Assembly (NCBI GenBank): GCA_938049385.1
Contig: CALIBQ010000038.1
Location: 33,974 to 97,973 of the forward strand
Direction: 5' to 3'
From: an uncultured Anaerolineae bacterium
GTDB lineage: Bacteria > Chloroflexota > Anaerolineae > JACIWP01
DNA: 64,000 nt
Each line of letters starts with the position of its first letter. Within the stretch, counting starts at the first letter, position 1. The notes beneath the pieces were generated by a model. It was not told the DNA's origin, ran no database searches, and saw only the letters and a program-made list of their open reading frames with translations. Below are positions 4,240 through 49,600 of the stretch, one piece after another. Both the position numbers and the translations under genes were made by a program.

Positions 4240-4500
4240 GGGTTATGCATAAGGCCCGGCAGTTGAAACTGCGGCTACGTCTGCGAAGTCAGCCTGTTCC
4301 GACTGCGCGAGGCCTGCAGAGGCAGGCTTCGCAGTTATTGCTGTGGCTTATGGAATTTCATCCTCGCGCCTTGTCTGGTGCTGAAGCACCAGTTTCATGA
4401 GCCAGGTGCTTCAGCACCAGGCTCACGGTGCCAAGCCCCGCAGGGGCTTCGCTTCATAAGCCGGCGGCTGGGATGCCGCCGGCGAACCTGCTTGAGACCA
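4240..4500. repeat. intergenic repeat cluster: truncated copy of the MITE-like family (core 4255-4350) followed by hairpin module (4380-4490)
   Basis: core GCAGTTGAAACTGCG...CTGCGAAGTC...GCAGGCTTCGCAGTTATTGCTGTGGCTT matches copies at 13047, 22279, 31977, 43616, 49374; second module CCAAGCCCCGCAGGGGCTTCGCTTCATAAGCCGGCGGCTGGGATGCCGCCGGCGAAC recurs at 49531-49590. Confidence 0.6.
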
Positions 4501-4523
4501 CAGGCTTATTGCCGAAGTAAAAA

Positions 4524-4560
4524 CAAACGGCCGTCGTGGAACCACGGCGGCCGTTTTCTG
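4524..4560. terminator. bidirectional hairpin terminator (AAACGGCCGTCGTGG-AACC-ACGGCGGCCGTTTT) between LysM-Ldt gene and ftsB-like gene
   Basis: stem with A-run before and T-run after, read directly; 18 nt beyond the stop of the minus-strand ftsB-like gene. Confidence 0.55.
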
Positions 4561-4577
4561 TCCTCCCGCTGATGATG

Positions 4578-4973
4578 CTATGGCCCCAAGAAGCGCTTGC
4601 GCCACAGGTCCCAGAAGGGAGGGGCGGCGGGCGGTGGGGTGCTCGGCGCGGCCGGCGTTGGGGTAGCCGCCGGCGTTCCCTCGTACTGCAGGAGCACACT
4701 GCCCTCGCCGGCGCTGGCCCAGCCCAACTCTTCGCGCGCCAGTTGGTCCAGATAGCCGGCACTGCGCGTCTGCTCTACCAGGCGCTGAAGCTCATTGCGC
4801 CGCTCCTGCACTTGTAGGACCTGGCGCTGAAGCTCGCGCTTTTCGGCCAGCACGATCTGGAAGGCATATGATTTGCCGGCCAGCAGGATGATGAAGTAGA
4901 GCGCCAGGCAGGCGATGCCGAAGGTCAGCCATTGGGCCAGGGTGGGACGAAAGCGGCGCGCGCGTTTGGCCAT
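4578..4973 (-). CDS. septum formation initiator family protein (FtsB/DivIC-like), Pro/Ala-rich C-terminus
   Basis: ORF 4578..5042; start at MAKRARRF (ATG 4973, GAGGGAACGAG RBS); single N-terminal TM helix then coiled coil (QIVLAEKRELQRQVLQVQERRNELQRLVEQ) typical of FtsB/DivIC. Confidence 0.7.
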   Translation of the reverse strand: MAKRARRFRPTLAQWLTFGIACLALYFIILLAGKSYAFQIVLAEKRELQRQVLQVQERRNELQRLVEQTRSAGYLDQLAREELGWASAGEGSVLLQYEGTPAATPTPAAPSTPPPAAPPFWDLWRKRFLGP

Positions 4974-5094
4974 CTCGTTCCCTCGTTCAATTGTCCTAGC
5001 CGCTGAGGCCAGGTGAATGCCGGCGCCGGCCGGCGGCCGCATGACACAAAAAAGATACCCCAGGGCGTTGGGAGTCTGCCCTGGGGCTGTTCGA

Positions 5095-5183
5095 TGGTGC
5101 CGAAGGAGGGATTTGAACCCACACGGGCGTTATGCCCACTGCGCCCTGAACGCAGCGTGTCTGCCAGTTCCACCACTTCGGCA
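5095..5183 (-). tRNA. tRNA-Leu (anticodon CAG), long variable arm, CCA encoded
   Basis: minus-strand RNA GCCGAAGTGGTGGAACTGGCAGACACGCTGCGTTCAGGGCGCAGTGGGCATAACGCCCGTGTGGGTTCAAATCCCTCCTTCGGCACCA; anticodon stem CTGCG/CGCAG with loop TTCAGGG; T-stem has one U-U mismatch. Confidence 0.8.
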
Positions 5184-5209
5184 TCCCAGCTTCCATTGGA
5201 AGCACCTAT

Positions 5210-5238
5210 ATTATATCGGGTTCGCCCCAATTTGTCAA
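5210..5238 (-). promoter_or_regulatory. sigma70-type promoter for tRNA-Leu (TTGACA-N17-TATAAT on minus strand)
   Basis: reverse complement of 5210-5238 reads TTGACAaattggggcgaacccgaTATAAT; overlaps the 3' end of the GNAT gene. Confidence 0.5.
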
Positions 5239-5239
5239 A

Positions 5240-5782
5240 TCAAGCCGGAAGGCCTTTGCGGAATTCCTCCTCCAGGATGCCCATCTGATGGATATCATGG
5301 TACTGCCCGTCGCGGTACAGGGCCTGCCGGCGCGTGCCCTCCAGGCGGAAGCCGGCTTTCTCATAACAGCGCCTGGCCCGCGTGTTGAAATCGTATACCT
5401 CCAGCTCCACCCGATGCAAATTCAGCTCCAGAAAGGCGAAGCGCAGGAGCGTGCGCACCGCGTCGGTGCCAAGGCCCCGGTTCCAGAAGCGCTTCTCACC
5501 GATGGAGATGCCCAGTACTCCACAGCGGTTCTTCCAGTCCACCCGATGCAGGCCGATGGTGCCGATGGGCAGCCATTCTCCCCCTTCTTCGGTCTCGATG
5601 ACAAACATCATGTCGTCGCGCGCTTTGAGATGTTCCTCGAACCACTGCTCTTCCCGGGCCTGGGACATGGGGAGGTACATCAGCAGGTACTGGCGTACCT
5701 CTGGATCGTTGAACCAGCGCACGAAGGTGGGGATATCGCGGCGCTCCGGGGAGCGCAGGCGGATGCGTGCACCAAAGAGCAT
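5240..5782 (-). CDS. GNAT family N-acetyltransferase (RimJ/RimL-like)
   Basis: ORF 5240..5863; start at MLFGARIRLR (ATG 5782, GGAGAA RBS); acetyl-CoA binding motif region RGLGTDAVRTLLRFAF and conserved FNTRARRCYEKAGF. Confidence 0.8.
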   Translation of the reverse strand: MLFGARIRLRSPERRDIPTFVRWFNDPEVRQYLLMYLPMSQAREEQWFEEHLKARDDMMFVIETEEGGEWLPIGTIGLHRVDWKNRCGVLGISIGEKRFWNRGLGTDAVRTLLRFAFLELNLHRVELEVYDFNTRARRCYEKAGFRLEGTRRQALYRDGQYHDIHQMGILEEEFRKGLPA

Positions 5783-5792
5783 GCGCGTTCTC

Positions 5793-7634
5793 CTAATGTC
5801 TGAGGTAGAAGGGCACGTCCGTGATGATGCGGAAGCGTCCCTGGCTCGTATCCCGGCGGGCATAGTTCAAGGCCCACTTGAGCACCAGGGCGGTCTGGTT
5901 GTGCAGGAAGAAGTGCCACCAGCGCGCCGGCACGAACTCCGGCATGACGATAGTCACGTAATGGCCGTCCTCATCAATGAAACTGTTCACGTAATCCATC
6001 AACGGCTCCACCACAGAGCGGTACGGCGATGGCAGGACCTCCAGCGGGATATCGGGCAGGTAATGCTTCCAGCGCTCCAAAAGCTTGGCCGTTTCCTCCG
6101 GATTCACATCCACGGTGACCACGTGCACGTCCTCTCCCAATGCCTTGGCATAGTACACGGCCTTGACGACGCCGCGATGCAGGCCGGCCACCGGCACGAC
6201 GACGGTATGTTTCTTGACCGGGGTGGGCCAGCGCAGGGAGAGAGAAAGCTGTTCCGCCACCTCTTCGTAATGATGGTGAATGGCTTTGAACATCATCACC
6301 AACAGGGGGATGAGGGCCAGCACGATCCACGCGCCGTGGATGAACTTGGTGACCGCCATCATTACCGCCACGATGAATGTGGCAACCGCTCCCAGGGCGT
6401 TAAAGATGATGGAAGTTTGCCAGCCGGGGGTGCGCCGGCGCAGCCAGTACCGCACCATGCCGGTCTGGTTGAGGGTGAAGGATGTGAACACGCCCACCGC
6501 GTACAGCGGGATAAGGGCATGGGTGCTGGCATGGAAGAGGATGACCAGCAGGGATGAAAACAGCCCCAAGAGGATGATGCCGTTGGCATAGACCAGCCGG
6601 TCTCCCACGTTGGCGAGCTGGCGCGGCAGGAAGCGATCGCGCGCCATCCACATGGAAAGGCGCGGGAAATCGGCGTAGCTGGTGTTGGCCGCCAGCACCA
6701 GGATGAGCATGGTCGCCGCCTGAATCAGGTAATAGAAGATACTTCGGTCGAAGATGGTGCGGGCGATTTGCGAGACAACGGTCTCGCCTTCGCGCGGGAC
6801 GATCCCAAGCTGGTGCGCCAGGAAAGTGATGCCCAGGAACATGGTCACCAGAATGGTGACCATCCACAGCAGGGTTTTGCCGGCGTTCTCCCCTTCAGGC
6901 GGCTTGAAAACCGGCACCCCGTCGCTGATGGCCTCCACACCGGTCAGGGCGGTACAGCCGGAGGTGAAGGCGCGCAGAAGCAGGAACAAGGTGAGCGGTT
7001 GGGCGGCCTGTACCGCAGTGGCGGTAGCGGCCTCCGCCGGCTGGATGGAGCCGGTGAGCACACGCGCTATGCCGACGCCGATGAGGGTCAGAATGCAGGC
7101 GATAAAAAAGTAGGTAGGCACGGCGAAGACGCGCGCCGACTCCCGCACGCCGCGCAGGTTCATGATGGTGATGAAGGCGATGGCAACAACCGCCAGCTCC
7201 ACCCGCCAGGGATAGAGCGGGGGAAAGGCGGAAGTGATGGCGGCAATGCCGGCGGAGATGCTCACCGCCACCGTCAGGATATAGTCGGTCAGCAAAGCCC
7301 CGCCGGCGACCAGGCTGGGAAGCGTGCCCAGGTTCTCGCGCGATACGATGTACGAGCCGGCGCCTTTCGGGTAGGCGTGCACTGTCTGGTAGTAGGACAT
7401 GCCGACGATGACCAGCAGTGCGGCGATGGCCAGCGCGATGGGCCATGACAGGTTCAGCGCGGCACTGCCGGCGAGGATCAGCACCATCAGGATTTCCTCC
7501 GTCGCATAGGCGACCGAGGAAAGCGCATCCGATGACAAGACAGCTAACGCCTGGACCTTGCCCAGGCGCTCATGGGACATGCGGTACGTCGGCAGCGGCA
7601 TGCCGATTAATATTCTCTTGATGTAGGACAGCAT
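5793..7634 (-). CDS. APC-superfamily amino acid permease with C-terminal cytoplasmic domain
   Basis: 613 aa, ~12 predicted TM helices (e.g. ILAGSAALNLSWPIALAIAALLVIVGMSYY), conserved APC N-terminal segment LSSDALSSVAYATEEIL; soluble C-terminal ~150 aa domain. Confidence 0.8.
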   Translation of the reverse strand: MLSYIKRILIGMPLPTYRMSHERLGKVQALAVLSSDALSSVAYATEEILMVLILAGSAALNLSWPIALAIAALLVIVGMSYYQTVHAYPKGAGSYIVSRENLGTLPSLVAGGALLTDYILTVAVSISAGIAAITSAFPPLYPWRVELAVVAIAFITIMNLRGVRESARVFAVPTYFFIACILTLIGVGIARVLTGSIQPAEAATATAVQAAQPLTLFLLLRAFTSGCTALTGVEAISDGVPVFKPPEGENAGKTLLWMVTILVTMFLGITFLAHQLGIVPREGETVVSQIARTIFDRSIFYYLIQAATMLILVLAANTSYADFPRLSMWMARDRFLPRQLANVGDRLVYANGIILLGLFSSLLVILFHASTHALIPLYAVGVFTSFTLNQTGMVRYWLRRRTPGWQTSIIFNALGAVATFIVAVMMAVTKFIHGAWIVLALIPLLVMMFKAIHHHYEEVAEQLSLSLRWPTPVKKHTVVVPVAGLHRGVVKAVYYAKALGEDVHVVTVDVNPEETAKLLERWKHYLPDIPLEVLPSPYRSVVEPLMDYVNSFIDEDGHYVTIVMPEFVPARWWHFFLHNQTALVLKWALNYARRDTSQGRFRIITDVPFYLRH

Positions 7635-7850
7635 AGCACATCCTCCAAAGACATGCGCTAAACTCCAAGGTTATCATCAAAGGGCTGGGCTGTCAACTTT
7701 TTCGAGAGCTTTTTCCCTCTCCGATACTCTCGGCCAGACGCTGAAGCAGTAGGCTCATGGCGCAAAGCCTGCCGGGGCTTTCGTTCCCTCCGCACCGTCG
7801 GCTCCCACCCCCGCGCAGGTGATGCACCACTTTCGCTAGGGACGGGCGTG

Positions 7851-7880
7851 TTGCAGGCCGGCGCTTATCAGGCTATAATA
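7851..7880 (+). promoter_or_regulatory. sigma70-type promoter candidate for rel (TTGCAG-N18-TATAAT)
   Basis: -35 TTGCAG 7851-7856, -10 TATAAT 7875-7880; 55 nt upstream of rel start. Confidence 0.45.
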
Positions 7881-7935
7881 TAAGTTTAGAGAGCGGAGAT
7901 AGGATTGGCATTGTTCCTGGTTAGGTGAATAGGAT

Positions 7936-10113
7936 ATGGTTGGCTCAACCAAGCTGATTGATGTGGAACAGTTGATATCGCAGTTGGATGATAAGAGCGG
8001 CGTCGGTGCCCAGCTCGTACGCCGCGCCTACGAGCGCGCCCTGCAGGCCCACGCCGGCCAGGCTCGCGCCTCCGGCGAATCCTATATCCAGCACCCGCTG
8101 GCCGTCGCCAGCATCCTCGCAGACCTGCGCTTGGACCCGGCCACCATTGCCGCGGCTCTGCTCCATGATGTCGTGGAAGACACTACCATCACCCTGGATG
8201 ATATCCGTCAGGAGTTCGGGGAGGAGGTGGCCCGGCTGGTAGACGGGGTGACCAAGCTGGAGAACATCAACCAGCTTCGCAATATGGGCCGGCCGGACCT
8301 GGAGGAGGAGCAGGCCGAGAATCTGCGCAAAATCTTCCTGGCCATGGTGGATGATGTGCGCGTGGTGCTCATCAAGCTGGCGGACCGGCTCCATAATATG
8401 CGCACTCTCGGCGCGCTGCCGGAGCATAAGCGTCGGCGCATCGCCAAAGAGACGTTGGAGATTTATGCTCCACTGGCCAACCGGCTGGGTATCTGGCAGA
8501 TCAAGTGGGAGCTGGAGGACCTATCGTTCCGCTATCTGGAGCCGGCCACGTACAAGCGCATCGCCAGCCTGATTGACGAGCGGCGCGAGGACCGCATGCG
8601 CGCCTTGGAGCAGATCACCGAGGTACTGCGCCAGCGGCTGAAGGAAGCCGGCATCGAGGCGGAGGTGTCCAGCCGGCCGAAGCATATCTACAGCATCTAC
8701 CGCAAGATGCAGAGAAAGGGCGTGGACTTCGACCAGATTTATGACGTGCGCGCGGTGCGCATCATCGTCAATACCATTGCTGAGTGTTACGCCGCGCTGG
8801 GCATCGTCCATTCGCTCTGGAAGCCCATCCCGCGCGAGTTCGACGACTTCATCGCCACGCCGAAGGACAACATGTACCGCTCCCTCCACACGGCGGTGCT
8901 GGGGCCGGACGGCAAGCCCCTGGAAGTGCAGATTCGCACCTGGGAGATGCACCGCACGGCGGAATACGGCATTGCGGCCCATTGGCGCTACAAGGAACAG
9001 CTCACCAAGCGCGATGTGGATTTTGAGAACAAGATCGCCTGGCTGCGCCAGATTATGGAGTGGCGCAAGGAGGTCACGGACGCCCGGGAGTTTATGGACT
9101 CACTCAAGACCGATGTCTTCCAAGACAGGGTCTATGTGTTCACGCCGCAGGGCGATGTGATTGACTTGCCGGCCGGCGCGACACCGGTGGACTTCGCCTA
9201 TCATGTGCACACCGAGATCGGCCACCGCTGTCGGGGGGCACGCGTCAACGGCCGCATCGTCAGCCTGGATTACCAGCTCCAGAACGGCGACCAGGTCGAG
9301 ATCATCACCGCCAAGCGGGGAGGCCCCAGCCGAGACTGGCTCAACCCGCAGTTGAACTACGTCAAGACCTCCCGGGCGCGCAACAAGATTCGGCAGTGGT
9401 TCCGCCGGCTGGATCGCGAGCAGAACATCCAGCTCGGCCGGGAAATTCTGGAACGGGAGCTGAAGCGGCTCAACGCCGAGGATGCCAACATTGATGAGCT
9501 GGCGGTCAGCTTCGGCTATGAGAAAGCGGATGACTTCCTGGCGGCTATCGGTTACGGGGATATCAACAGCCAGCAGATCGCTACCAAGGTGCTGGCCGGC
9601 GAGCGGCTTCGGGCCCAGCAAGAGGAAAAACTTGCGGCGCTGAGCGAGATGAAGCCAGCGCCGGCCGCCGGCGATGTCAGCGTCATGGGCACCAGCGGAC
9701 TGCTCACCAAGCTGGCCGGCTGCTGCAATCCCCTGCCCGGCGACCCCATCGTGGGCTACGTCACCCGCGGCAAGGGTGTGACCATCCATCGCCAGGACTG
9801 CCCGAACGTCCTGCGCCTCCGGGACAAAGAGCGGCTGATCGCCGTGGATTGGGGGAGCGCCGAGGATCAGGCCTATCCGGTGATGATTGTGGTCAAGGCG
9901 TTCAACCGCGGTGGCCTTCTGCGGGATATCGCCGCGCTGGTGGCGGACGAGGGCATTGACATGAGCTCCGCCCACGCCATCACGGGCGAGAAGGGGAATA
10001 TCGCCACCATCACCGCCACCCTGGAGATCACCAGTGTCGCCCAGCTCAGCCGGGTGCTGGCCATGATTGAGCGCATCCCCAATGTGATCGAGGCCCGCCG
10101 GCTGGTGGGCTAG
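7936..10113 (+). CDS. rel: bifunctional (p)ppGpp synthetase/hydrolase RelA/SpoT homologue
   Basis: 725 aa; HD hydrolase motif (HPLAVASILADL...HDVVEDT), RelA_SpoT synthetase domain (YRSLHTAVLGPDGKPLEVQIRT), TGS and C-terminal ACT domains. Confidence 0.95.
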   Translation: MVGSTKLIDVEQLISQLDDKSGVGAQLVRRAYERALQAHAGQARASGESYIQHPLAVASILADLRLDPATIAAALLHDVVEDTTITLDDIRQEFGEEVARLVDGVTKLENINQLRNMGRPDLEEEQAENLRKIFLAMVDDVRVVLIKLADRLHNMRTLGALPEHKRRRIAKETLEIYAPLANRLGIWQIKWELEDLSFRYLEPATYKRIASLIDERREDRMRALEQITEVLRQRLKEAGIEAEVSSRPKHIYSIYRKMQRKGVDFDQIYDVRAVRIIVNTIAECYAALGIVHSLWKPIPREFDDFIATPKDNMYRSLHTAVLGPDGKPLEVQIRTWEMHRTAEYGIAAHWRYKEQLTKRDVDFENKIAWLRQIMEWRKEVTDAREFMDSLKTDVFQDRVYVFTPQGDVIDLPAGATPVDFAYHVHTEIGHRCRGARVNGRIVSLDYQLQNGDQVEIITAKRGGPSRDWLNPQLNYVKTSRARNKIRQWFRRLDREQNIQLGREILERELKRLNAEDANIDELAVSFGYEKADDFLAAIGYGDINSQQIATKVLAGERLRAQQEEKLAALSEMKPAPAAGDVSVMGTSGLLTKLAGCCNPLPGDPIVGYVTRGKGVTIHRQDCPNVLRLRDKERLIAVDWGSAEDQAYPVMIVVKAFNRGGLLRDIAALVADEGIDMSSAHAITGEKGNIATITATLEITSVAQLSRVLAMIERIPNVIEARRLVG

Positions 10114-10124
10114 CGTGGGAAAGT

Positions 10125-10156
10125 AAAACGGCGGGAGGAAGTTCCTCCCGCCGTTT
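10125..10156. terminator. bidirectional hairpin terminator AAAACGGCGGGAGG-AAGTT-CCTCCCGCCGTTT between rel and PPIase gene
   Basis: perfect 10-bp stem flanked by A-run and T-run, read directly. Confidence 0.65.
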
Positions 10157-10164
10157 GGCGTCTC

Positions 10165-11337: not shown

Positions 11338-11368
11338 ATCAACCTCGATGAATATGCCGGCATGGAGC

Positions 11369-11400
11369 AAGGCCTCCCGCGGCGCACTGCGGGAGGCCTT
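11369..11400 (-). terminator. hairpin terminator of rpsF-ssb-rpsR operon (AAGGCCTCCCGC-GGCGCACT-GCGGGAGGCCTT)
   Basis: perfect 12-bp stem 13 nt downstream of rpsR stop, read directly. Confidence 0.55.
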
Positions 11401-11412
11401 GAGGTTCAGGAA

Positions 11413-11796: not shown

Positions 11797-11835
11797 GGTT
11801 ATCCCTCCTTTACTTGCAAAGGGTGATTTGGTGTG

Positions 11836-12891: not shown

Positions 12892-13004
12892 TCCGTCTCG
12901 CTTCCTCCTTTCTTTGGGTTTGCCTCCGGTCAAATCGCGTCGGGCGACGGCCAGAGGCAGAAAGAACGAGGGAGTCCCGTTCCGCTCCCTCGTCGAGACA
13001 AGCG

Positions 13005-13034
13005 ATTTATACCATAAAGTGTCGAGATTGGCAA
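13005..13034 (-). promoter_or_regulatory. sigma70-type promoter candidate for rpsF operon (TTGCCA-N17-TATAAA on minus strand)
   Basis: reverse complement reads TTGCCAatctcgacactttatggTATAAA; leader of ~110 nt follows with a GC hairpin at 12966-12992. Confidence 0.45.
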
Positions 13035-13046
13035 AAATATCGCGCG

Positions 13047-13220
13047 AGAGTGTTGAAAAAGTCCAAACATATAATCTTGTGGAAGCGATCTAGCGGCTGA
13101 AGCCACGGCAACAACTGCGAAGCCTGCGCAGGCTTCGCGACGTCGGCCGACTTCGCAGGCACACAGCCGTAGTTTCAACTGCTAGGCGATGAGCCAATAC
13201 CCGCTTTTTCAACACTCTCT
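13047..13220. repeat. MITE-like repeat, full copy with perfect 16-bp terminal inverted repeats (GAGAGTGTTGAAAAAG ... CTTTTTCAACACTCTC)
   Basis: TIRs read directly at 13047-13062 and 13205-13220; internal core GTCCAAACAT...GCGGCTGAAGCCACGGCAACAACTGCGAAGCCTGCGCAGGCTTCGCGACGTCGGCCGACTTCGCAGGCACACAGCCGTAGTTTCAACTGCTAGGCGATGAGCCAATAC shared with five other intergenic loci. Confidence 0.75.
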
Positions 13221-13236
13221 TGCCAGGGTAACGGGA

Positions 13237-14334
13237 TCAGACGGCAAAGCGAATGTGGATGACATCGCCGTCCTGGACGATGTAGTCCCGCCCTTCCATG
13301 CGGACCAGGCCGGCGGCGCGGGCTTCCTGCCAGGAGCCGGCCTCCACCAGTTTGTCCCAGGGGATGACGTCCGCACGGATAAAGCCGCGCTGCATGTCGG
13401 TGTGAATCTTGCCGGCGGCGTCCCAGACCGTCAGGCCGGCGCGCAGGGGCCAAGCACGCACCTCTTCCGTGCCGGTGGCGGTGAAAAAGGTGATGAGGTT
13501 CAGCAGGCGGAAGCCGGCCCAGGCGAGCTGATGCAGTCCAGAGCGCTCCAGTCCCATCGCCTGGCGGAATTCCTCCGCTTCCGCCGGCTCCATCTGGGCC
13601 AGCTCCGCTTCCAGCTCCGCGCAAATCACCACCACCGGGATGTTTTCCATCTCGGCGCGCTGGCGCACCCGCTCGGCCAACAGGCCGCCGTCCGGCAGGG
13701 AATCCTCCCCCACGTTGGCGATCCAGAGCTGAGGCTTGGCGCTCAGCAGGAACAGCTCTTGGAGCCAAGCGCTTTCCTGTTCGCCGCAGTGGAAGCGGTC
13801 GGCGCGCTGGCCGGCGTTCAGATGTTCCCGCAGGGCCTGCAGGAAGGCGAGCTGAGGCGCGTAGGCTTTGGGGTCGGCCTTGGCCGCCGAGCGCACCCGT
13901 TCGATGCGGCGGTCTACGCTCTGGATATCCGCCAGGATGAGTTCAGCATTGACCGTTCCCATGTCCAGCAGGGGGTCAATCTCGCCGAACTGGTGCGGGA
14001 TGTCCGGGTCCTCGAAACAGCGCAGGACAAGGGCGATGGCATCTACGTTGCGGATGTGGCCCAGGAACTGGTTGCCCAGGCCCTCGCCGCGCGAGGCGCC
14101 TTTGACCAGGCCGGCGATGTCCACGAACTCGATGGCGGCCGGCACAACGCGTTTGGGGCGTACCACGCCGGCGACGCGCTGGAGCCGCTCATCCGGCACC
14201 TCGGCGACACCCACGTTGGGGTCAATGGTCGTGAAGGGATAGCTGGCGACAGCGGCCTGGGCGCGCGTTAAGGCGTTGAAAAGGGTGGATTTGCCCACGT
14301 TCGGGAGGCCAACAATGCCAATTTGGAGCGACAC
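13237..14334 (-). CDS. ychF: ribosome-binding ATPase YchF (Obg-family)
   Basis: 365 aa; G1 motif GIVGLPNVGKSTLFNALT, G4 region, C-terminal TGS domain (RAWPLRAGLTVWDAAGKIHTDMQRGFIRADVI). Confidence 0.9.
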   Translation of the reverse strand: MSLQIGIVGLPNVGKSTLFNALTRAQAAVASYPFTTIDPNVGVAEVPDERLQRVAGVVRPKRVVPAAIEFVDIAGLVKGASRGEGLGNQFLGHIRNVDAIALVLRCFEDPDIPHQFGEIDPLLDMGTVNAELILADIQSVDRRIERVRSAAKADPKAYAPQLAFLQALREHLNAGQRADRFHCGEQESAWLQELFLLSAKPQLWIANVGEDSLPDGGLLAERVRQRAEMENIPVVVICAELEAELAQMEPAEAEEFRQAMGLERSGLHQLAWAGFRLLNLITFFTATGTEEVRAWPLRAGLTVWDAAGKIHTDMQRGFIRADVIPWDKLVEAGSWQEARAAGLVRMEGRDYIVQDGDVIHIRFAV

Positions 14335-22174: not shown

Positions 22175-22278
22175 ACCGGGACGCACCAATCATCGGAGTA
22201 AGTCAGGGCTTGCCCCCGCATGATTGATGAAATCCACGGCCAATGTTATAATGCCTTGCAGTGTCAGGCTGTGATGCA

Positions 22279-22480
22279 GGAGGTGTTGGAAAGGTCAAGA
22301 TTGTCATTCGATTTGCGGGTATTGGCTCATCGCCTGATAGTTGAAACTGCGGTTGTGCCTACGAAGTCGGCCGGCGCCGACTTCGTGAAGCCTGCGCAGA
22401 CAGGCTTTATAGTCGTTGCCGCGGCTTCAGCCGCCAGGCCGCTTCCACAGATTGTATGTTTGGACTTTTTCAGCACCCTC
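22279..22480. repeat. MITE-like repeat copy (inverted orientation relative to copy at 13047)
   Basis: contains GGTATTGGCTCATCGCCTGATAGTTGAAACTGCGG...CGAAGTCGGCCGGCGCCGACTTCG...GCCTGCGCAGACAGGC...GTTGCCGCGGCTTCAGCCGCCAGGCCGCTTCCACAGATTGTATGTTTGGAC with TIR-like ends GAGGTGTTGGAAAGGTC / GACTTTTTCAGCACCCTC. Confidence 0.7.
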
Positions 22481-22496
22481 GGTGCAGGAGCTGGGG

Positions 22497-24435: not shown

Positions 24436-24640
24436 AACCCCACCTCTGGCCCTTCCTCGTGCACAAGGGGCAAGGAACGCGGGTAAAAATCCCTGCCAGG
24501 CTTTGGAATATGAGCCGACTGCTTCGGCGCCTGACGAAGAACACCCGGCCTTTCCCGCATGCAGGGAGGGGAGCCGGCGGCCGGCCTTGGTATCGTGACC
24601 GTGGTGGAAAACGTTTACTGCAGTTGCTCAGGAGGCGCCT

Positions 24641-31806: not shown

Positions 31807-31976
31807 GGTGGGTATCCTGCGCGCTTCTTGACCGAACTTAAGTCAGGTGAAGCTAGCACCGGTTGGGGCTGCCGGCCTGGGAAGAAGAGGCACGTCCGTC
31901 ACGTGAATACCTGCTTTCCGCACCAACACACATACCATTATACCGGACGCGGCCGAATCCGGCAATATGTACCATC

Positions 31977-32137
31977 GAGGGTATGGGAAAAAGTCCAAAC
32001 ATGCAATCTGTGGAAGCGGCCTAGCGGCTGAAGCCACGGCAATAATTGCGAAGCCTGCCTGCGCAGACCGACTTCGCAGGCACACAGCCGCAGTTTCAAC
32101 TGCCAGGCGATGAGCCAATATCTTTTTCGACACCCTC
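31977..32137. repeat. MITE-like repeat copy with imperfect TIRs (GAGGGTATGGGAAAAAG ... CTTTTTCGACACCCTC)
   Basis: same orientation and near-identical core as copy at 13047 (GTCCAAACATGCAATCTGTGGAAGCGGCCTAGCGGCTGAAGCCACGGCAATAATTGCGAAGCCTGCCTGCGCAGACCGACTTCGCAGGCACACAGCCGCAGTTTCAACTGCCAGGCGATGAGCCAATAT). Confidence 0.75.
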
Positions 32138-32254
32138 ACTATCGGGCCATTTTCGCCGGCGCTTAATCTTCTTTTAATCCAGCCGTGATACACATGTAGC
32201 GGGTGTTATGCCCATACTTGAAAATCCTACCAATCTGAAGGAGCAAGGAGGGGT

Positions 32255-35518: not shown

Positions 35519-35606
35519 TGCCACCTGCTCCCCTCCCTGCGTGCGGGGAGGGGGTGGGGGTGGGGCATTTCCCTCCCCGCGTGCGGGGAGGGGCCAGGGG
35601 TGGGGT
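35519..35606. repeat. tandem ~42-bp G-rich REP-like units, each a hairpin (CCCTCCC-TGCGTGCG-GGGAGGG) followed by GGTGGGGGTGGGG (G-quadruplex-capable)
   Basis: two direct copies read at 35519-35560 and 35563-35606 in the obg leader; related hairpin at 41615-41657. Confidence 0.5.
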
Positions 35607-35643
35607 AACTCCCTATATCACAAAACACACAGGGGATGGCATC

Positions 35644-38375: not shown

Positions 38376-38399
38376 CCCTGTGCTGATGAGGCGAGGCCG

Positions 38400-41577: not shown

Positions 41578-41614
41578 CAAACGCAGCCAGGTGCTGTTTC
41601 GCCTGGTGCTTCTG

Positions 41615-41657
41615 CGCCGGCCTTCCCCTCCCCACGCACAGGGAGGGGAGGGCCGGC
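41615..41657. terminator. bidirectional GC hairpin between convergent GH31 and mgtE (GCCGGCCTTCCCCTCCCC-ACGCACA-GGGAGGGGAGGGCCGGC)
   Basis: ~17-bp stem read directly; same CCCTCCC...GGGAGGG family as the repeats upstream of obg. Confidence 0.55.
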
Positions 41658-41677
41658 TGTTATTGGACCCCTCCCCG

Positions 41678-43033: not shown

Positions 43034-43282
43034 AGTCGTCCTCCTCTGTCTGCCAGGATGAATGTGGACGGAGGACGGTGGGTCCACCTTCTCCTGGCAC
43101 CGGAGGCCGAACAGCGCGTCAGAGGCTGGGGTCCATTACGGCGCGGAGAAGGTGGGCGCACCGCCCTTACGTGATGATGGGTCGTCTTCGGAAAGGGTAT
43201 TGGATTCTGGTACTGCGATCACGTTCATGGTTCTCCTTCTCCGCCGCAAAGTTGGTCTCATCAGGCCGGCCGGCAGGCAACA

Positions 43283-43310
43283 AAAAAGGCCACAGCACAG
43301 GCTGCGGCCT
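43283..43310 (-). terminator. minus-strand rho-independent terminator (GGCCGCAG-CCTGTG-CTGTGGCC + TTTTTT) upstream of the mgtE leader
   Basis: read on the reverse complement of 43283-43310; 8-bp stem (one G-U) followed by T6; no annotated minus-strand gene ends here. Confidence 0.5.
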
Positions 43311-43615
43311 CGCCCAGGGCAGGCGCGGACTGCACCCGGCAGTCCGGCTCCCGCCTACGGCAGGTCGAGCTGTCCTGTCACAGCCAAGCCTCGCTTGTCA
43401 AAGTGGTTCATCCACCCACTGCCAGTCATCCCTATATGGGGACGACTGTCATCACTGCTGGAAGCCTTCAACGTCGTCATACTCCATCGGTTGCGAACAG
43501 TTCCGCCGGCCCCTTGTTTCGTCCGCCGGCACATCCACCTACGCTGTCATTTCGAAAGCCATCCCAAAACTATGCTAAATGTACCACGCGCGGGTGAGAA
43601 TGTCAACTTTTTGTC

Positions 43616-43755
43616 AGGAGGATGTGGAAAAGGCCAAGATTTGCGGGTATTGGCTCACTGCCTGGCAGTTAAAACGGCGGGCCTGCGCCGGCTTCGCGAA
43701 ACCTGCGCAGGCGGGCTTCGCAGTTATTGCCGTGGCTTCAGCCGCCAGACCATGG
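43616..43755. repeat. MITE-like repeat copy (inverted orientation; right end degenerate)
   Basis: GAGGATGTGGAAAAGGCC...GGTATTGGCTCACTGCCTGGCAGTTAAAACGGCGGGCCTGCGCCGGCTTCGCGAAACCTGCGCAGGCGGGCTTCGCAGTTATTGCCGTGGCTTCAGCCGCCAG. Confidence 0.65.
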
Positions 43756-43923
43756 CGCGCACTGATATATAACTGGCATACTTGACATCGGCATTGAAAT
43801 ATGATACTTTGTAATTAGCGCGCAGGCGCTTTTCTTTTGCGGCCCGCTGCATACATTCGATATACCAGCGTTACGCACGCCGGCCGCCTATCATTTTTCT
43901 GCCCCAAAAAGGAGGAAGGAAAC

Positions 43924-45342
43924 ATGCTACAACGATTTGTGGAGTTTCTGACCCCAGCAGATGTAACGCGCATCCATGAGCAGTCCATGCGCCTGCTGGA
44001 AGAAGTGGGGGTGGAAATGCCGGTGGAGGCGGCGCGCGAGGCGCTCCGCCAGCGCGGCGCGCGGGTCGAGGGCACGCGCGTCCACCTGCCCCGCCGGCTG
44101 GTGGAAGAAAGCATCCGCCTGGCCCCCTCCCGCTTCACCATTCACGCCCGCAACCCGCAGAAAGACGTGGTGGTCGGCGGCGGCAGTTCCGTCTTCGCGC
44201 CAGGTTACGGCGCACCGTTCCTGATGGATTACGAGAAGGGCCAGCGCCACGCCACTATGGAGGATTACCAGAACCTGGTGCGCATCATTGACGCACTGCC
44301 CAACCTCGACCTTTCCGGGCACCTGTTGGTGGAGCCGCACGACGTGCCGGCCGGCAGTGCTCACCTCCATATGCTCATGGCGCACCTGCGCTACTCCGAC
44401 AAGCCCTTCATCGCCTCCAGCAACGGACAAAAGGGCGCCGAGGCCACGCTGGACATGGCCGGCATCGTGTTTGGCAGTCGCGACGCCCTGCGCAATAAGC
44501 CGGTCACCATCGCGCTCATCAACACCCTCAGTCCCCTGAGCTTCGCCACGGAAATGCTGGAAGCATTGATGGCCTTCGCCGAATGGGGTCAGCCTGTGGT
44601 CATCGCCAGCATGGCGCAGGCCGGCGCCACCGCCCCCGTCACCCTGGCCGGCATGATCGCCCAGATCAACGCCGAAATCCTCAGCGGCGTCGTCCTTGCC
44701 CAGGCCATCAATCCGGGCACACCGGTCGTCTACGGCTCCACCAGCACCATCATGGACATGAACACCGCCGCGGCCGCCATCGGCAGTCCGGAATATTCCA
44801 TCCTGGTCGCCTGCCAGGCGCAGATGGGCCGCTTCTACGGCCTGCCCAGCCGCTCCGGCGGAAGCCTGACCGATTCGCAGGTGCCTGACGCCCAGGCCGG
44901 CCTGGAGTCTATGATGTCCCTGCTCACCACTGTCAACGCCGGCATTGACTTTGTCCTGCACGCCGCCGGCATTCTCGGCTCGTACCTCACCTTCTCCTAC
45001 GAGAAGCTGGTCATGGACCATGAAATCTGCGGTATGGTGCGGCGCTACCGCCAGGGTCTGCTGGTGGATGACGAGTCCCTGGCCTTCAGCACCATCGCCG
45101 CCGTGGGGCCGGGCGGCAACTTCCTGATGGAAGAGCACACCCTGCGCCACTTCCGCGGCGCCTTCTACATGCCGAAGCTGTGTAACCGCGATGCCCTGCC
45201 GGCCTGGCAGGAAAAGGGGTCCCTCGATATGGCTCAGCGCGCCCATCAGTACTGGCAGAGGGTCCTGCAGACCCATCAGCCGGCGGAGCCGGACGCCGCA
45301 GTCATCCGCGCCCTCGAGGCATACGTCGAGCGGCACTCCTGA
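43924..45342 (+). CDS. MttB-superfamily methyltransferase (non-pyrrolysine; glycine betaine/quaternary amine:corrinoid methyltransferase-like)
   Basis: ORF 43837..45342; start at MLQRFVEF (ATG 43924, AGGAGGAAGG RBS); full-length similarity to trimethylamine methyltransferase fold (TIM barrel) with no in-frame amber codon. Confidence 0.75.
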   Translation: MLQRFVEFLTPADVTRIHEQSMRLLEEVGVEMPVEAAREALRQRGARVEGTRVHLPRRLVEESIRLAPSRFTIHARNPQKDVVVGGGSSVFAPGYGAPFLMDYEKGQRHATMEDYQNLVRIIDALPNLDLSGHLLVEPHDVPAGSAHLHMLMAHLRYSDKPFIASSNGQKGAEATLDMAGIVFGSRDALRNKPVTIALINTLSPLSFATEMLEALMAFAEWGQPVVIASMAQAGATAPVTLAGMIAQINAEILSGVVLAQAINPGTPVVYGSTSTIMDMNTAAAAIGSPEYSILVACQAQMGRFYGLPSRSGGSLTDSQVPDAQAGLESMMSLLTTVNAGIDFVLHAAGILGSYLTFSYEKLVMDHEICGMVRRYRQGLLVDDESLAFSTIAAVGPGGNFLMEEHTLRHFRGAFYMPKLCNRDALPAWQEKGSLDMAQRAHQYWQRVLQTHQPAEPDAAVIRALEAYVERHS

Positions 45343-45383
45343 GGGATTCGCCCTGCACGTACCACACAACGGGAAGGGGGAGT

Positions 45384-46013
45384 ATGGCGCAAACCGCGAC
45401 CGAACGAGCCTACCGCACCATTCGCGAGAAGATCATCCGCCTGGAGTATGCCCCCGGCGAACTGCTGGTCGAATCCGGCCTGGCGGAGGAGCTGGGCACT
45501 GGCCGCACCCCGGTGCGCGAGGCCCTGAAAATGCTGGCCTGCGAGAACCTGGTGGTCATCATCCCCCAGCGCGGCATCTATGTCGCGGACATCAGCCTGA
45601 CCGACCTGCAGGAGATCGCGGAACTGCGCCTGGCGGTGGAAGGGCTGGCCGCGCAGTTGGCCGCCCAGCGCATCACACCCCAGCAGTTGGAACGGCTCCG
45701 CTCCCTGACCCATCAGCTCGCCCACACTGCCCCCGACGATGTAGAGAAGCTGATGGAGATTGACCGCCAATTTCATCTGACCGTGGCAGAGGCCGCCGGC
45801 AACAAGCATCTGGCCGACGTCATCGTCAGCCTGTACGACAAATCCCTGCGGCTCTGGCGGCTGGCACTGACCCGTGTGGGCGCGCTGGCCAGCTCCATTG
45901 AACGCCATGAGGAGCTCCTGGACGCGCTGGAATACGGCAACGCCGCCAAAGCGTCCGAGATCATGCAGGAGCATGTGCGCGATTTCCATCGGCGCATGCG
46001 TGAGGCGTTCTGA
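45384..46013 (+). CDS. GntR-family transcriptional regulator (FadR/FCD subfamily)
   Basis: N-terminal wHTH (LVESGLAEELGTGRTPVREALKML), C-terminal FCD helical domain. Confidence 0.85.
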   Translation: MAQTATERAYRTIREKIIRLEYAPGELLVESGLAEELGTGRTPVREALKMLACENLVVIIPQRGIYVADISLTDLQEIAELRLAVEGLAAQLAAQRITPQQLERLRSLTHQLAHTAPDDVEKLMEIDRQFHLTVAEAAGNKHLADVIVSLYDKSLRLWRLALTRVGALASSIERHEELLDALEYGNAAKASEIMQEHVRDFHRRMREAF

Positions 46014-46045
46014 ATACCATATTCCATCACATCGAGGAACGCGCC

Positions 46046-47563
46046 ATGTCATTCCGCCTTCATGCCGCCCTGCCGGAAGATATTCTGCCGGCCCTGCGTG
46101 AACGGGCACACACGTACCGCGATGCTATCATCGCCGGTATCCAGCACCTTGTCGCCATCCCCAGTGTCAACTCGATGGGCGCCGCATTCCCCAGCCAGGA
46201 GACCCGCGCCGCCCTGCGCTGGATGCTGGAGCACGCCGGCGCCCTCGGCTTCCGCACCCAGAACCTGGACGATATGGTCGGCTTCGTGGAGTATGGGCCG
46301 GCGGATGCCCCAGAGGTCGTGGCAGTGTTGGTCCATCTGGACGTCGTCCCGCCAGGTGAGGGATGGACCCATCCACCCTTTGCCGGCATCGTCTCCGACG
46401 GCATGATCTGGGGGCGCGGCGTGGAAGATGATAAAGGGCCGGCGGTTTCCGCACTATATGCCATGAAGGTGCTCAGCGACCTTGGGCTTCCTCTGCGCCG
46501 CCGCATCCGTCTCATCCTGGGCACGCTGGAAGAGAGCGGCGACTGGAGCGACATCCGGCATTACGAGGCGCGCGAGGGCCGGCCGGTCATGGGCTTCACC
46601 CCGGATGCCCATTTCCCCGTTATCTGCGGCGAGAAGGGCATCCTGAACGTCACTTTCCGGGCGCAGGGGCCGGCGTCCAGCGCTTCTGCCGGCAGACATG
46701 ACATGCGTATTGCCGCATGGCATGCCGGCAGTGCCCCCAACATCGTGCCGGCGTTCGCCTGGGCCGCCCTTGCTTTGGATTCGCGGCGCCTGGAGCCGGC
46801 ATTGGTCTCCCTCCAACGTTCTGCCCGCCGCTTCGCCCAGCATCATCCGGACAGCCAGCTCCAGGTCATGCGGGCCGAACGGTTCCGCGAGCATTACCCC
46901 CAGGAGAGACTGCCGGCGGATGCACAGGTGGTGATCGCCGCAAGCGGGAAAGAGGCGCACGGCGCCCTGCCCTGGGACGGGCATAATGCTCTCCAGGACC
47001 TGGCCAATTTCCTGGCGGCCTGTAAGGTCTGCGACAATGCGATCGGCCGGCTGGCGCATTTCACTGCCCGGCACCTCGGGGTCGGATGGGACGGCGTCGG
47101 CCTGGGCATCGCCGCAGAGCACGACAAACTTGGCCCCACCACGGTCAGCCTGGGCATGGCCCGAGGAGATGCCGATCATGCCAGCATCACGCTGAACATC
47201 CGCCTGACGCCTCCGCATACGGTCGCCAGCCTCTCGGAGAAGCTTCTTCGCATCGGGGAAGAAGCCGGCCTGCAGGTGGAGATTGACCCGACCGCGATGA
47301 ATCCCCTTTTTGTGGACGAACGCGATCCCTTGGTCGTGGGCCTGAAGCGCGCCTATCAGCTTGTTACCGGCCGGCCGGCGGCCTGTGCCTATATCGGCGG
47401 CACCACCTATGCCAAGGCTTTCCCGCGTATGGTGGCCTTTGGCCCCCTGATGCCGGATGAGCCGATGCTGGCGCATCATGTGGACGAGCGGATCAGTCTG
47501 GAGTCGCTGGTGCGCAACACGGAAATCTATGCGCTGGCCCTGTATTTCCTCGCCGGCGCGTAG
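46046..47563 (+). CDS. M20-family dipeptidase (PepV/Sapep-like)
   Basis: 505 aa; M20 metal-binding motifs (LVHLDVVP; GVEDDKGP; GTLEESGDW), dimerization lid domain. Confidence 0.85.
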   Translation: MSFRLHAALPEDILPALRERAHTYRDAIIAGIQHLVAIPSVNSMGAAFPSQETRAALRWMLEHAGALGFRTQNLDDMVGFVEYGPADAPEVVAVLVHLDVVPPGEGWTHPPFAGIVSDGMIWGRGVEDDKGPAVSALYAMKVLSDLGLPLRRRIRLILGTLEESGDWSDIRHYEAREGRPVMGFTPDAHFPVICGEKGILNVTFRAQGPASSASAGRHDMRIAAWHAGSAPNIVPAFAWAALALDSRRLEPALVSLQRSARRFAQHHPDSQLQVMRAERFREHYPQERLPADAQVVIAASGKEAHGALPWDGHNALQDLANFLAACKVCDNAIGRLAHFTARHLGVGWDGVGLGIAAEHDKLGPTTVSLGMARGDADHASITLNIRLTPPHTVASLSEKLLRIGEEAGLQVEIDPTAMNPLFVDERDPLVVGLKRAYQLVTGRPAACAYIGGTTYAKAFPRMVAFGPLMPDEPMLAHHVDERISLESLVRNTEIYALALYFLAGA

Positions 47564-47652
47564 ACTGCCTGTTTCCATTCCAACGCATACGCAAAGGCCC
47601 GGAACCGCAGTGGTCCCGGGCCTTTGGCTTTTCAAGGAGATAGAGCGCACCC

Positions 47653-49284
47653 CTACGGCAGATAGTCCAGGGGGTTGCGCCGCACGTTATTCACGATCAC
47701 TTCGAGATGCAAGTGCGGGCCGGTCGCCCGGCCGGTGGCACCCACAGTGCCGATGGTCTGCCCCTGGGTGACGGCGGTGCCGGCCTCCACGAAAATCTCG
47801 TTGAGGTGGGCATACAGCGTCTGCATGCCGTTGTTGTGCTCAATCACCACCATCAACCCATAGCCCACGTCGGTCCAGCCGGCGCGCACCACATAGCCCG
47901 TGTCCGCCGCCGCGACCGGGGTACCCCGCCGCGTGGCGATATCCAGGCCTGGATGACCTCTTGTGAAGCGCTGGCTGATGCTCCCGCGCACCGGCCAGAT
48001 GAGCGCGCCGGTGCCTACAGGGGCATCTGCCGGCAGTGAGGCTTTGGTCATCCCTTTCCGCGCCTGGCGGATGGGCATTTTGCCGCCCGGCACAAAGAGC
48101 TTCTCTCCAACCTTCAGCGCCTCCGGGTCCAGGACCGGGTTGTACTGGCTGTCCAGGATGGCGTTCATGGTGACGCCGTACTGCCGGGCGATGCCCAGCA
48201 GGGTGTCACCGCGCTGGATGGTATGCACCACACCGTCCGCCGGCGGTATCACCAGCTCCTGTCCCACCCGCAGGCGGTTGGGATTGGCCTGCAGGTCCGG
48301 GTTGGCCCAGATGATGGATTTCTGGTCCAGCCCGAGGGCGCTGGCGATGCTGGAGATGGTGTCCCCTTCCCGCACGACATATTTGCGCAGAAGCACCGTC
48401 TTCGGGCGGAGCTGAGGAAGGTTTGGCGGGATGCCTTCTCCCAGCGGCGTGGCATGCGTCGGCACAATCATGCTGTTCGGCAGGGCAGTCCCTTCCTCAT
48501 CGATCGCCCCCTCTTTCGCCGAGCGGCCGGCGCCTGGTATGCGGAGTTCTTGCCCGATGCTGAGTTTGTCCGGGTCATCCTGCAGTTCCGGGTTCGCCAG
48601 CAGGATATCCAGCAGGCTCACCCCGAACTGCTTGGCGATGCCCGTCAGCGTATCCCCGTCCTGCACCACGTAGACGGCCGGCTCGGGTTCAGGCGTGGGC
48701 AGGAAAGGAATCGCCTCAGGGCTCAGGTCCTCGCCCAGCGGCGTGGCATGGCTGGGCAGAGGCGGCGTGGGCACGCCTACCGGCGTCGCGACAGCCGCCG
48801 GCGCGGCGCCGGCATTTTTCGGCGCTTCCTGGCCGGCGCGGGGGATGCGCAGTTCCTGGCCGACCTTTAGCCGGTGCGGGTCATTCTGCAGGTCCGGGTT
48901 GGCATCCAGGATTTCCTCCTGTTTCACCCCGAAGCGTTTGGCAATGCCGGACACGGTATCTCCCTGCTGAACCGTATAGAGCTGGAACCCCGGTGTAGAC
49001 GCAGGGGATACCGGGGTGATCGCCGGCAGGGCCGGCACCGCCGCTGAGGTCGGCGTTGCCGATGGGGTTGGGGCGCCCGGGGCCGCCGGCGTGGAAGGTG
49101 CCTGCGGCGCGGCCGGCGGAACATACCCTCTGCCGAGCAGTGGGAGGAAGACCCTGGGAGAAGTGCCGCCTTGAGCGTAGGCGAAACGTGCGAAGGGGGA
49201 GAAGAGTGCTATCAGGATGGAGAGAAGAACCATGACCGGCAGGCATTTGTGGGGCGTTGCTGCACGGTAGTCTGGTTCAGCCAC
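47653..49284 (-). CDS. M23-family metallopeptidase with four LysM domains and N-terminal membrane anchor
   Basis: four LysM repeats (e.g. YTVQQGDTVSGIAKRFGV; YVVQDGDTLTGIAKQFGV; YVVREGDTISSIASALGL; HTIQRGDTLLGIARQYGV); C-terminal M23 motifs (HPGLDIA; HLHLEV). Confidence 0.85.
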   Translation of the reverse strand: MAEPDYRAATPHKCLPVMVLLSILIALFSPFARFAYAQGGTSPRVFLPLLGRGYVPPAAPQAPSTPAAPGAPTPSATPTSAAVPALPAITPVSPASTPGFQLYTVQQGDTVSGIAKRFGVKQEEILDANPDLQNDPHRLKVGQELRIPRAGQEAPKNAGAAPAAVATPVGVPTPPLPSHATPLGEDLSPEAIPFLPTPEPEPAVYVVQDGDTLTGIAKQFGVSLLDILLANPELQDDPDKLSIGQELRIPGAGRSAKEGAIDEEGTALPNSMIVPTHATPLGEGIPPNLPQLRPKTVLLRKYVVREGDTISSIASALGLDQKSIIWANPDLQANPNRLRVGQELVIPPADGVVHTIQRGDTLLGIARQYGVTMNAILDSQYNPVLDPEALKVGEKLFVPGGKMPIRQARKGMTKASLPADAPVGTGALIWPVRGSISQRFTRGHPGLDIATRRGTPVAAADTGYVVRAGWTDVGYGLMVVIEHNNGMQTLYAHLNEIFVEAGTAVTQGQTIGTVGATGRATGPHLHLEVIVNNVRRNPLDYLP

Positions 49285-49373
49285 TATGCCAACCTCCGAT
49301 GTCTAAGATGTGAGCGAGCCGGCACAACGCCGCCATAATAGCATAAATGCGCCGTATGCGCAAATCGGCACAA

Positions 49374-49600
49374 GGAGGGTGTGGAAAAAGACTCATTGCC
49401 TGGCAGTTGAAACTGCGTCTGGTGCCTGCGAAGTCGGCACAGGTCGACTTCGCGAAGCCTGCGCAGGCAGGCTTCGCAGGTGTTGCCGTGGCCTCAGCCG
49501 CCAAACGCTAGCGCACCAGGCTTACGCTACCAAGCCCCGTAGGGGCTTGGCTTCCTGAGCCGGCGGCTTCCAGCCGCCGGCGAACTTCCGACAAGCGGAT
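49374..49600. repeat. MITE-like repeat copy (inverted orientation) plus hairpin module
   Basis: GGAGGGTGTGGAAAAAGACTCATTGCCTGGCAGTTGAAACTGCG...CTGCGAAGTCGGCACAGGTCGACTTCGCGAAGCCTGCGCAGGCAGGCTTCGCAGGTGTTGCCGTGGCCTCAGCCGCC; second module CCAAGCCCCGTAGGGGCTTGG...AGCCGGCGGCTTCCAGCCGCCGGCGAAC as in 4431-4490. Confidence 0.7.

Follow-up and report, generated by a model that had tools for sequence, protein, structure and literature searches.

A 64-kb stretch of DNA (G+C content, 63.7%) from an uncultured member of the Anaerolineae (Chloroflexota), hereafter referred to as the window, carries six copies of a short non-coding repeat, which a first-pass annotation had regarded either as a miniature inverted-repeat transposable element (MITE) or as a structured small RNA. 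According to GC3-based gene calls, all six copies are intergenic. Three of them are full-length (161-201 nt) and have terminal inverted repeats (TIRs) at both ends. The 174-nt copy at 13046-13219 (minus strand), with perfect 16-nt TIRs at 13046-13061 and 13204-13219, lies between the ychF stop codon and the rpsF promoter and begins 17 nt after a stop codon. The 201-nt copy at 22280-22480 (plus strand), the longest and most complete palindrome of the family, occupies the 5' leader of an SDR oxidoreductase gene, between the promoter and the Shine-Dalgarno sequence. The 161-nt copy at 31977-32137 (minus strand), which has an internal deletion, lies about 11 nt 5' of the -35 hexamer of a response-regulator gene. 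The other three copies, all on the plus strand, are shorter. Those at 43616-43752 (between the divergent mgtE and mttB-like genes) and 49374-49505 comprise a left TIR (43618-43633, with three mismatches, and 49375-49390, respectively) and the core; the former stops right after the GTTGCCGTGGCTTCAGCCGCC hairpin and the latter at the same boundary of an internal module described below. The copy at 4240-4350 consists of the core without TIRs, and begins 3 nt past the stop codon of a LysM/L,D-transpeptidase-like gene. The genes beside the copies (L,D-transpeptidase-like, YchF/S6, ABC permease/SDR, response regulator/S-layer-like, MgtE/MttB-like and LysM-M23/glycosyltransferase) have no functional relation to one another.

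Using a combination of methods (profile search, direct and inverted repeat scan, and alignment), we showed that the copies form a single family, with members in both orientations. With a profile derived from the six-way alignment of the window copies, nhmmer matched six homologous places in the 64 kb (E values of 1.3e-54 to 1.3e-38), exactly the six loci of the first-pass annotation, whose coordinates needed only refinement to those given above; the other matches in the window were weaker reverse-strand self-hits, which occur because the element is palindromic. The copies, 111-201 nt in length, can be aligned with each other over 110-200 nt with pairwise identities of 74-92% (aligned columns), and reach a density of six per 64 kb. 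The statements that they occur in both orientations (two minus, four plus), always between genes and with no coding capacity, all hold. Each copy shares its orientation with at least one neighbouring gene, and no open reading frame (ORF) is conserved between the copies, the alignment of which shows frame-shifting indels. Such a small size and lack of coding capacity are usual for MITEs (about 70-300 bp).

The TIR consensus is the 16-nt sequence GAGGGTGTTGAAAAAG (end motif abbreviated as GRRGGTGTTGAAAAA), which is perfect in the 13046 copy, as had been reported with a one-nucleotide shift in coordinates, and imperfect in the 22280 and 31977 copies. With up to three mismatches, it occurs seven times in the window as compared to 0.21 expected, a number reached in none of 100 shuffles, and six of these seven occurrences sit at the ends of copies. 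The length of these repeats is within the range found in MITEs (about 15-30 bp), though three copies are devoid of a right TIR; near-identical TIR pairs had been claimed for the 31977, 22279 and 49374 loci, and only the first two have such a pair, the third one having the left TIR alone. The entire element is a single long imperfect palindrome, in which the two TIRs pair mutually, the left arm CCTGGCAGTTGAAACTGCGGC pairs with the right arm GCCGTGGCTTCAGCCGCCAGG, and two central hairpins (GCGAAGTCGGC...GCCGACTTCGC and CGAAGCCTGC-GCAG-GCAGGCTTCG) stand between the arms. The nested palindromes of the first-pass annotation consist mostly of the two distant arms CCTGGCAGTTGAAACTGCGGC/GCCGTGGCTTCAGCCGCCAGG, which pair around the central hairpins. 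In the 31977 copy the internal deletion joins the two central hairpins at their common CGAAG motif, and the 22280 copy has 21 additional nucleotides near its left end.

Protein searches assigned the window to an uncultured lineage of the Anaerolineae. The strongest evidence for mobility came from relatives that share with the window 85-92% protein identity and 84-88% nucleotide identity in orthologous genes. First, in five assemblies of one relative (L202-L206; five separate sequencing runs), the SDR gene of which is 88% identical to that of the window at the nucleotide level, the SDR leader is uninterrupted at the place where the window carries the 22280 copy. This leader reads GTCAGGCTGTGATGCAGGAGGTGGGGATG, with the arrangement TGATTGATG-N17-TATAAT...GTCAGGCTGTGATGCAGGAGGTGGGG-ATG from promoter to start, whereas the window reads GTCAGGCTGTGATGCAG, the 201-nt element and GGTGCAGGAGCTGGGGATG, and shares the promoter (TTGATG-17-TATAAT, preceded by a TG; 22224-22252, plus strand) and the start codon. 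The interruption spans precisely from TIR to TIR: at the junctions, GTCAGGCTGTGATGCAG is followed by the element (GAGGTGTTGG...CAGCACCCTC, 201 nt) and then by GGTGCAGGAGCTGGGG-ATG. The 7-nt target occurs on both sides as a target-site duplication (TSD), namely GATGCAG on the left (22273-22279, plus strand) and GGTGCAG on the right (22481-22487, plus strand), which are identical at six of the seven positions. The Shine-Dalgarno sequence of the SDR gene is regenerated by this duplicated target. Since it lies between a promoter conserved in the relatives and the start codon, the 22280 copy must, judging by its position, belong to the leader of the SDR mRNA.

Second, two other relatives (L210 and L211) keep the divergent pair of S-layer-like and response-regulator genes, with spacers of 286 and 285 nt, as compared to 448 nt in the window, i.e. 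287 nt plus the 161-nt element. The window junctions read CCCGATAGT, the element and GATGGTACAT, versus one CCCGATGGTACAT in L210. The flanking repeats (minus strand) are GATAGT on the left (32138-32143) and GATGGT on the right (31971-31976), versus a single GATGGT in L210, a duplication of 6 nt, or of 7 nt with the terminal C taken as part of the target. Two of the three full-length copies therefore have a TSD, with the single target in the relatives, and at both of these sites the element is present in the window and absent from the orthologous position (L202-L206 and L210/L211), two features expected of MITEs, the former of which the first-pass annotation had proposed to look for. By comparing orthologous sites, we showed that a TIR-bounded unit inserted with a TSD at two places after the lineage of the window split from these relatives.

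Third, the same ends were found around a different interior. In L207 (GCA_052743915.1, 'Anaerolineae bacterium'), the SDR of which is 86% identical to the window protein, GAAGGTGTTGAAAAAC...TTTTTTCAACACCCCT bound a 176-bp element (L207:1877-2052), the interior of which is unrelated to the window family and holds a hairpin of the CCCCTCCCC...GGGAGGGG type. The same relative has a solo right TIR (L207:8205-8220) located 12 nt 5' of the -35 hexamer of the SDR promoter. In 2.25 Mb of loci, the 13-nt core of the TIR (one mismatch allowed) is confined to the window and L207-L209, apart from three scattered single matches elsewhere. Conserved ends with interchangeable interiors would be expected if a transposase recognises the ends. 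At three independent places, upstream of rpsF and of the response-regulator gene in the window (13030-13045 and 31950-31976) and of the SDR gene in L207 (L207:8221-8240), a distance of 9-12 nt separates the right end of an element from the -35 hexamer that follows it, which suggests that insertion may be tolerated, preferred or retained just upstream of promoters.

From these lines of evidence we propose, with a probability of about 80%, that the copies are a non-autonomous DNA transposon, i.e. a MITE, mobilised in trans via its TIRs by a transposase making 6-7-bp staggered cuts, and that its cargo is a doublet of hairpins similar to repetitive extragenic palindromes (REP). The MITE reading of the first-pass annotation is thus supported by the conserved ends, the two TSDs with empty sites and the TIRs around a different interior in L207; altogether, four of the five MITE features tested here were observed (size and lack of coding capacity, TIRs, TSD, and presence/absence at orthologous sites). 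In the proposed mechanism, a transposase encoded elsewhere, presumably of the DDE type and operating by cut-and-paste or copy-out, would bind the 16-bp TIRs (GAGGGTGTTGAAAAAG); the 160-200-bp unit would integrate in intergenic DNA at staggered cuts 6-7 bp apart, and gap repair would make the flanking direct repeat. Copies inserted in transcribed spacers would enter the mRNA, where they could fold as a long hairpin. The family would have expanded after the split from the sampled relatives and would now be decaying, since three of the six copies have lost the right end. The divergence between copies (about 8-26%) compared with that of orthologous genes (12-16%) fits such an expansion after the split, which was probably not very recent. 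The MITE would be specific to this Anaerolineae lineage: the family core had no copy in about 50 kb of non-redundant sequence of close relatives, and the family profile (nhmmer) had no match in 1.36 Mb around relA of the 80 nearest GTDB genomes, Anaerolineae and others (RelA identity of 64-68% at best). The exact patterns of the 32-nt core and of the left arm had no match in GTDB representative genomes and in JGI metagenomes, respectively, collections that do not include the genome of the window. A BLAST comparison of the element and its module with plasmids gave no match, and the module pattern was not found in viral contigs.

Several observations weigh against this proposal. The exact left boundary is ambiguous at the SDR site, because GAGGTG, the continuation of the target there, is similar to the start of the TIR. 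The length of the duplication is not consistent, 7 bp at the SDR site and 6 (or 7) bp at the response-regulator site, and no flanking duplication was recognised around the 13046 copy (three matches out of six) despite its perfect TIRs. At the corresponding ychF-rpsF spacer of the relative L001 (L001:3650-3850), there is no clean empty site but a different, hairpin-rich filling of about 200 nt ending in a TIR-like CCCTTTCAACAACCTA (12 of 16 positions), which may have arisen by replacement of the interior or by an earlier insertion there that has since diverged. Neither a transposase gene nor a longer element with matching TIRs, such as the full-length insertion sequence that the first-pass annotation had suggested searching for, was found in the window or in about 50 kb of the relatives. 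All three short copies stop directly after the right-arm hairpin, at a common module boundary, and such a common end point is unexpected under random truncation. Finally, the predicted RNA of the forward strand folds 1.5-20 kcal/mol better than that of the reverse strand in five of the six copies (the two strands being essentially equal in the sixth one, -75.0 versus -74.7 kcal/mol), with 50 G-U pairs versus 17, and this asymmetry, together with the co-orientation of the copies with genes, could mean a constraint at the RNA level. Both observations can equally come from the shared ancestry of the copies, owing to which the G-U counts are not independent, and from a transcription-linked C-to-T bias.

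The core of the element is an inverted doublet of a two-hairpin REP-like module, present in the window at 13093-13135, 22392-22436, 43692-43747 and 49448-49503. A scan of JGI metagenomes with the 19-mer of the right arm, which is invariant by design of the search, yielded at least 120 loci (L082-L201), and about 60% of the matches listed are non-chance and share a common architecture. It comprises a variable GC hairpin (e.g. AGCCCGC-GNAG-GCGGGCT, AGCCTCGC-GCGGTTT-GCGAGGCT or AGTCCGC-GAAG-GCGGACT), TTCSC, 4-8 nt, and then GTTGCC-GCGGC-TTCA-GCCGC-C (examples at L113:5560-5640, L152:1077-1195, L137:1-560 and L106:7270-7750). A profile search of the same loci found 56 more instances devoid of the exact pattern. 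The TTCA loop of the small hairpin is kept in 122 of 126 distinct sequences, and its stem shows compensatory changes (GC to AT, five times; CG to TA, AT or GC, eight times) with only two or three broken pairs; compensatory changes also occur in the variable hairpin. Among the matches listed, the module lies on more than 100 soil-metagenome contigs. It occurs singly, in inverted doublets (L152, L106, L181 and L186) or in a tandem array (5 x 108 nt, L137). The L152 doublet, which has both types of window central hairpins (E value of 1.3e-13 to the window profile), is flanked by its own AT-rich 19-nt inverted repeats. The variable hairpin reaches the gathering score of the Rfam family CRISPR-DR28 in two metagenome loci, but not in the window.

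In the window, the short copies 4240 and 49374 run on into a shared second block of REP-like hairpins, which adjoins each of them (4351-4500 and 49506-49600, both on the plus strand and homologous to each other; GGTGCTTCAGCACC, AAGCCCCGCAGGGGCTT and GCCGGCGGC..GCCGCCGGC in the former). One hairpin of this block, GGTGC-TTCA-GCACC, differs from the small hairpin of the module by compensatory changes, and AAGCCCCGCAGGGGCTT and GCCGGCGGC...GCCGCCGGC also belong to the block; a weak relic of the block is present at 7732-7786, and the whole arrangement is a BIME-like mosaic. In metagenome loci, long palindromes of the GTCATTCTGAGCGCAGCGAAGAATC / GTCATTGCGAGCGGAGCGAAGCAATC type adjoin the module (L106:7380-7530 and L152:1260-1335) and represent another dispersed hairpin family of environmental bacteria.

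These features bring forward a first alternative, in which the hairpin doublet itself would be the mobile or maintained unit, as in REPs and REPINs. A RAYT-like tyrosine (HUH) transposase would handle it in single-stranded form, and the 16-nt repeats would be just the outermost part of the palindrome. Such a reading would account for the occurrence of the core module alone, in inverted doublets and in tandem on more than 100 metagenome contigs, with 67 of 77 instances being intergenic and no orientation bias relative to genes, for the compensatory changes in both hairpins, and for the exact end of the three short window copies at the module boundary. To our knowledge, IS200/IS605-type and RAYT-type mechanisms do not make target duplications like those described above, whereas the two insertions in the window are bounded exactly by the TIRs and have TSDs of 6-7 bp, and the same TIRs surround an unrelated interior in L207. 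When the 1172 ORFs close to the 77 module instances were clustered all against all, no recurrent neighbouring protein family emerged, RAYT or other, and the ORF between the inverted module pair of L113 is, by eye, unlike a Y1 transposase. REPs are defined as palindromic units of 20-40 bp with a GTAG (or CGTC) tag at one end, and both dimers and variants flanked by TIRs are represented among the published families (Di Nocera et al. 2013, PMC3733652). The module fits this general description but has no conserved GTAG/CGTC tag abutting its stems: the position between the hairpins reads GTAG, GTGG, GTCG, GTTG or GCAG, several nucleotides off the stems, and is not conserved. We regard this alternative as unlikely. 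The possibility raised in the first-pass annotation, that the copies are ordinary REP-type palindromes, applies to the interior, a REP-like module widespread in metagenomes, but not to the inserted unit, which is a TIR-bounded element.

Somewhat less likely still is a family of cis-acting or small RNAs selected as leader or 3'-UTR hairpins (terminators, stabilisers or regulators) and not spread by transposition. In its favour are the strong predicted folds (-51 to -93 kcal/mol, with z-scores of -3.3 to -6.3 versus dinucleotide shuffles in the four folds of two copies, each taken as either strand), the better folding of the forward strand in five of the six copies and its surplus of G-U pairs, the orientation that each copy shares with one or more adjacent genes, the location of one copy in a 5' leader (22280), and the start of two others shortly after stop codons (4240 and 13046). 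The element is, however, absent from the orthologous leader and spacer, in which the promoter, the Shine-Dalgarno sequence and the gene are kept. Double changes affect just two of the 36 consensus pairs in the six related copies, a weak covariation. At the Rfam gathering threshold, the whole window gave three tRNAs alone, and a relaxed search of two copies (13000-13260 and 43560-43800) gave CRISPR-DR28 (24 nt) alone, at 15-21 bits versus a gathering score of 35. In addition, the neighbouring genes are functionally unrelated, no promoter or terminator of its own was seen in the element, and the excess of G-U pairs is open to the explanations given above. The small RNA offered by the first-pass annotation as the primary nature of the repeat was therefore not retained. 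As for a chance likeness of GC-rich palindromes or low-complexity sequence without a real family, for which the high G+C content and nothing more can be invoked, it is refuted by the E values (down to 1e-54), by the excess of TIRs (seven versus 0.21) and by the 110-200 nt over which copies align.

Returning to the MITE, we tentatively consider, as a possibility that we hold to be rather doubtful, that its cargo belongs to an undescribed, widespread class of structurally constrained intergenic elements of GC-rich environmental bacteria. The module, made up of a variable GC hairpin of 7-8 bp, the linker TTCSC...GTTGCC and a 5-bp hairpin (GCGNN-TTCA-NNCGC), would have its own mobilising or binding protein, and various lineages would have repeatedly packaged it between unrelated terminal repeats. 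If so, the 16-nt TIRs of the window and the AT-rich 19-nt flanks of L152 would be two such packages, and the MITE would be a vehicle for a functional hairpin module.

With respect to known systems, TIRs that start with G(A/G)G or GGG and include TGTTG...AAAA-like strings (e.g. IS903, GGCTTTGTTGAATAAATC) are typical of the IS5 and IS1595 families, and the window TIR presumably resembles such ends. The TSDs of the IS5 subgroups (2-4, 8 or 9 bp) are a poor match to 6-7 bp, and the IS1016 group of IS1595 (7-9 bp) is a better fit. The TIRs of Correia elements are 26 bp long, and the target that these elements duplicate is the dinucleotide TA. The window element is like these Neisseria elements (Correia/NEMIS) in being non-coding and 100-200 bp long, with TIRs that can pair into a long RNA hairpin and with many intergenic copies located near promoters and in transcribed leaders and trailers, truncated and internally deleted variants coexisting; it is unlike them in its 16-bp TIRs, its 6-7-bp TSDs, its unrelated sequence and its GC-rich, REP-like interior. 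Like the ERIC/IRU elements of Enterobacteria and Yersinia, the window element forms an imperfect palindrome over its whole length and is found at transcribed intergenic sites, with size variants generated by internal indels, but there is no sequence similarity, the host phylum is different, and insertion with a 6-7-bp TSD was observed directly from the empty sites. The sequence of the window element is unrelated to any named family, and its TSD length differs from the TA of Correia. In common with REP/BIME/REPIN and with the TIR families around RAYT-like genes, it has short GC-rich stem-loops arranged as inverted doublets and sometimes clustered with other hairpins (4351-4500 and 49506-49600), and related modules dispersed in many genomes (Di Nocera et al. 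2013, in which Correia elements are listed as MITEs; PMC3733652). By contrast, it has no GTAG/CGTC stem tag, no RAYT gene was seen, and the inserted unit is bounded by TIRs with a TSD. A literature search with 17-mers and with the TIR string returned no relevant paper, and among the papers listed by a full-text search on MITEs of Chloroflexi none, judging by titles and abstracts, describes such an element.

Other features of the window deserve mention. A hairpin repeat, CCCTCCC(T/C)GCGTGCGGGGAGGG, followed by a G-rich run, forms two tandem 40-nt units at 35531-35610, with an inverted relative at 24549-24581; the hairpin inside the L207 element is of a comparable style. A prophage-like remnant with small unknown ORFs occupies 60265-63947, beside tRNA-Arg(TCG). 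Among its genes are one for a RusA-like resolvase (61102-61455) and one for a small-terminase-like HTH protein (61620-62204); a further ORF, of 573 aa, matched no family. The remnant also contains an AT-rich 53-nt inverted repeat of TTGAGAA-like heptamers (62066-62194). The HTH_Tnp-like ORF at 61620-62204 was considered as a transposase and rejected, as phage small terminase subunits match it better and no TIR is nearby. Likewise, the three direct repeats of about 76 nt at 3309-3762 (64-72% identical) are not a non-coding repeat but the LysM domains of an L,D-transpeptidase-like ORF of 341 aa. In two copies, a Shine-Dalgarno-like AGGAGG that precedes an ATG or GTG near the left end was discarded as a coding start (zero spacing and non-conserved frames), as was the TTGAAA...TATAAT at the right end of the 13046 copy as an internal sigma-70 promoter, the spacer being merely 11 nt.

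Our findings leave the current understanding of how such elements work unchanged. They document, through empty sites and TSDs, the activity of a MITE in uncultured Anaerolineae, in which mobile elements have been barely described. The copies mark recent genome change and can break metagenome-assembled genomes. The 22280 copy adds about 200 nt of RNA, predicted to fold strongly, to the leader of the SDR gene, and the copies near -35 boxes (13046 and 31977) are candidates for altered expression of the adjacent genes. Lastly, the metagenome-wide module with its compensatory changes is possibly a more useful lead than the MITE itself.

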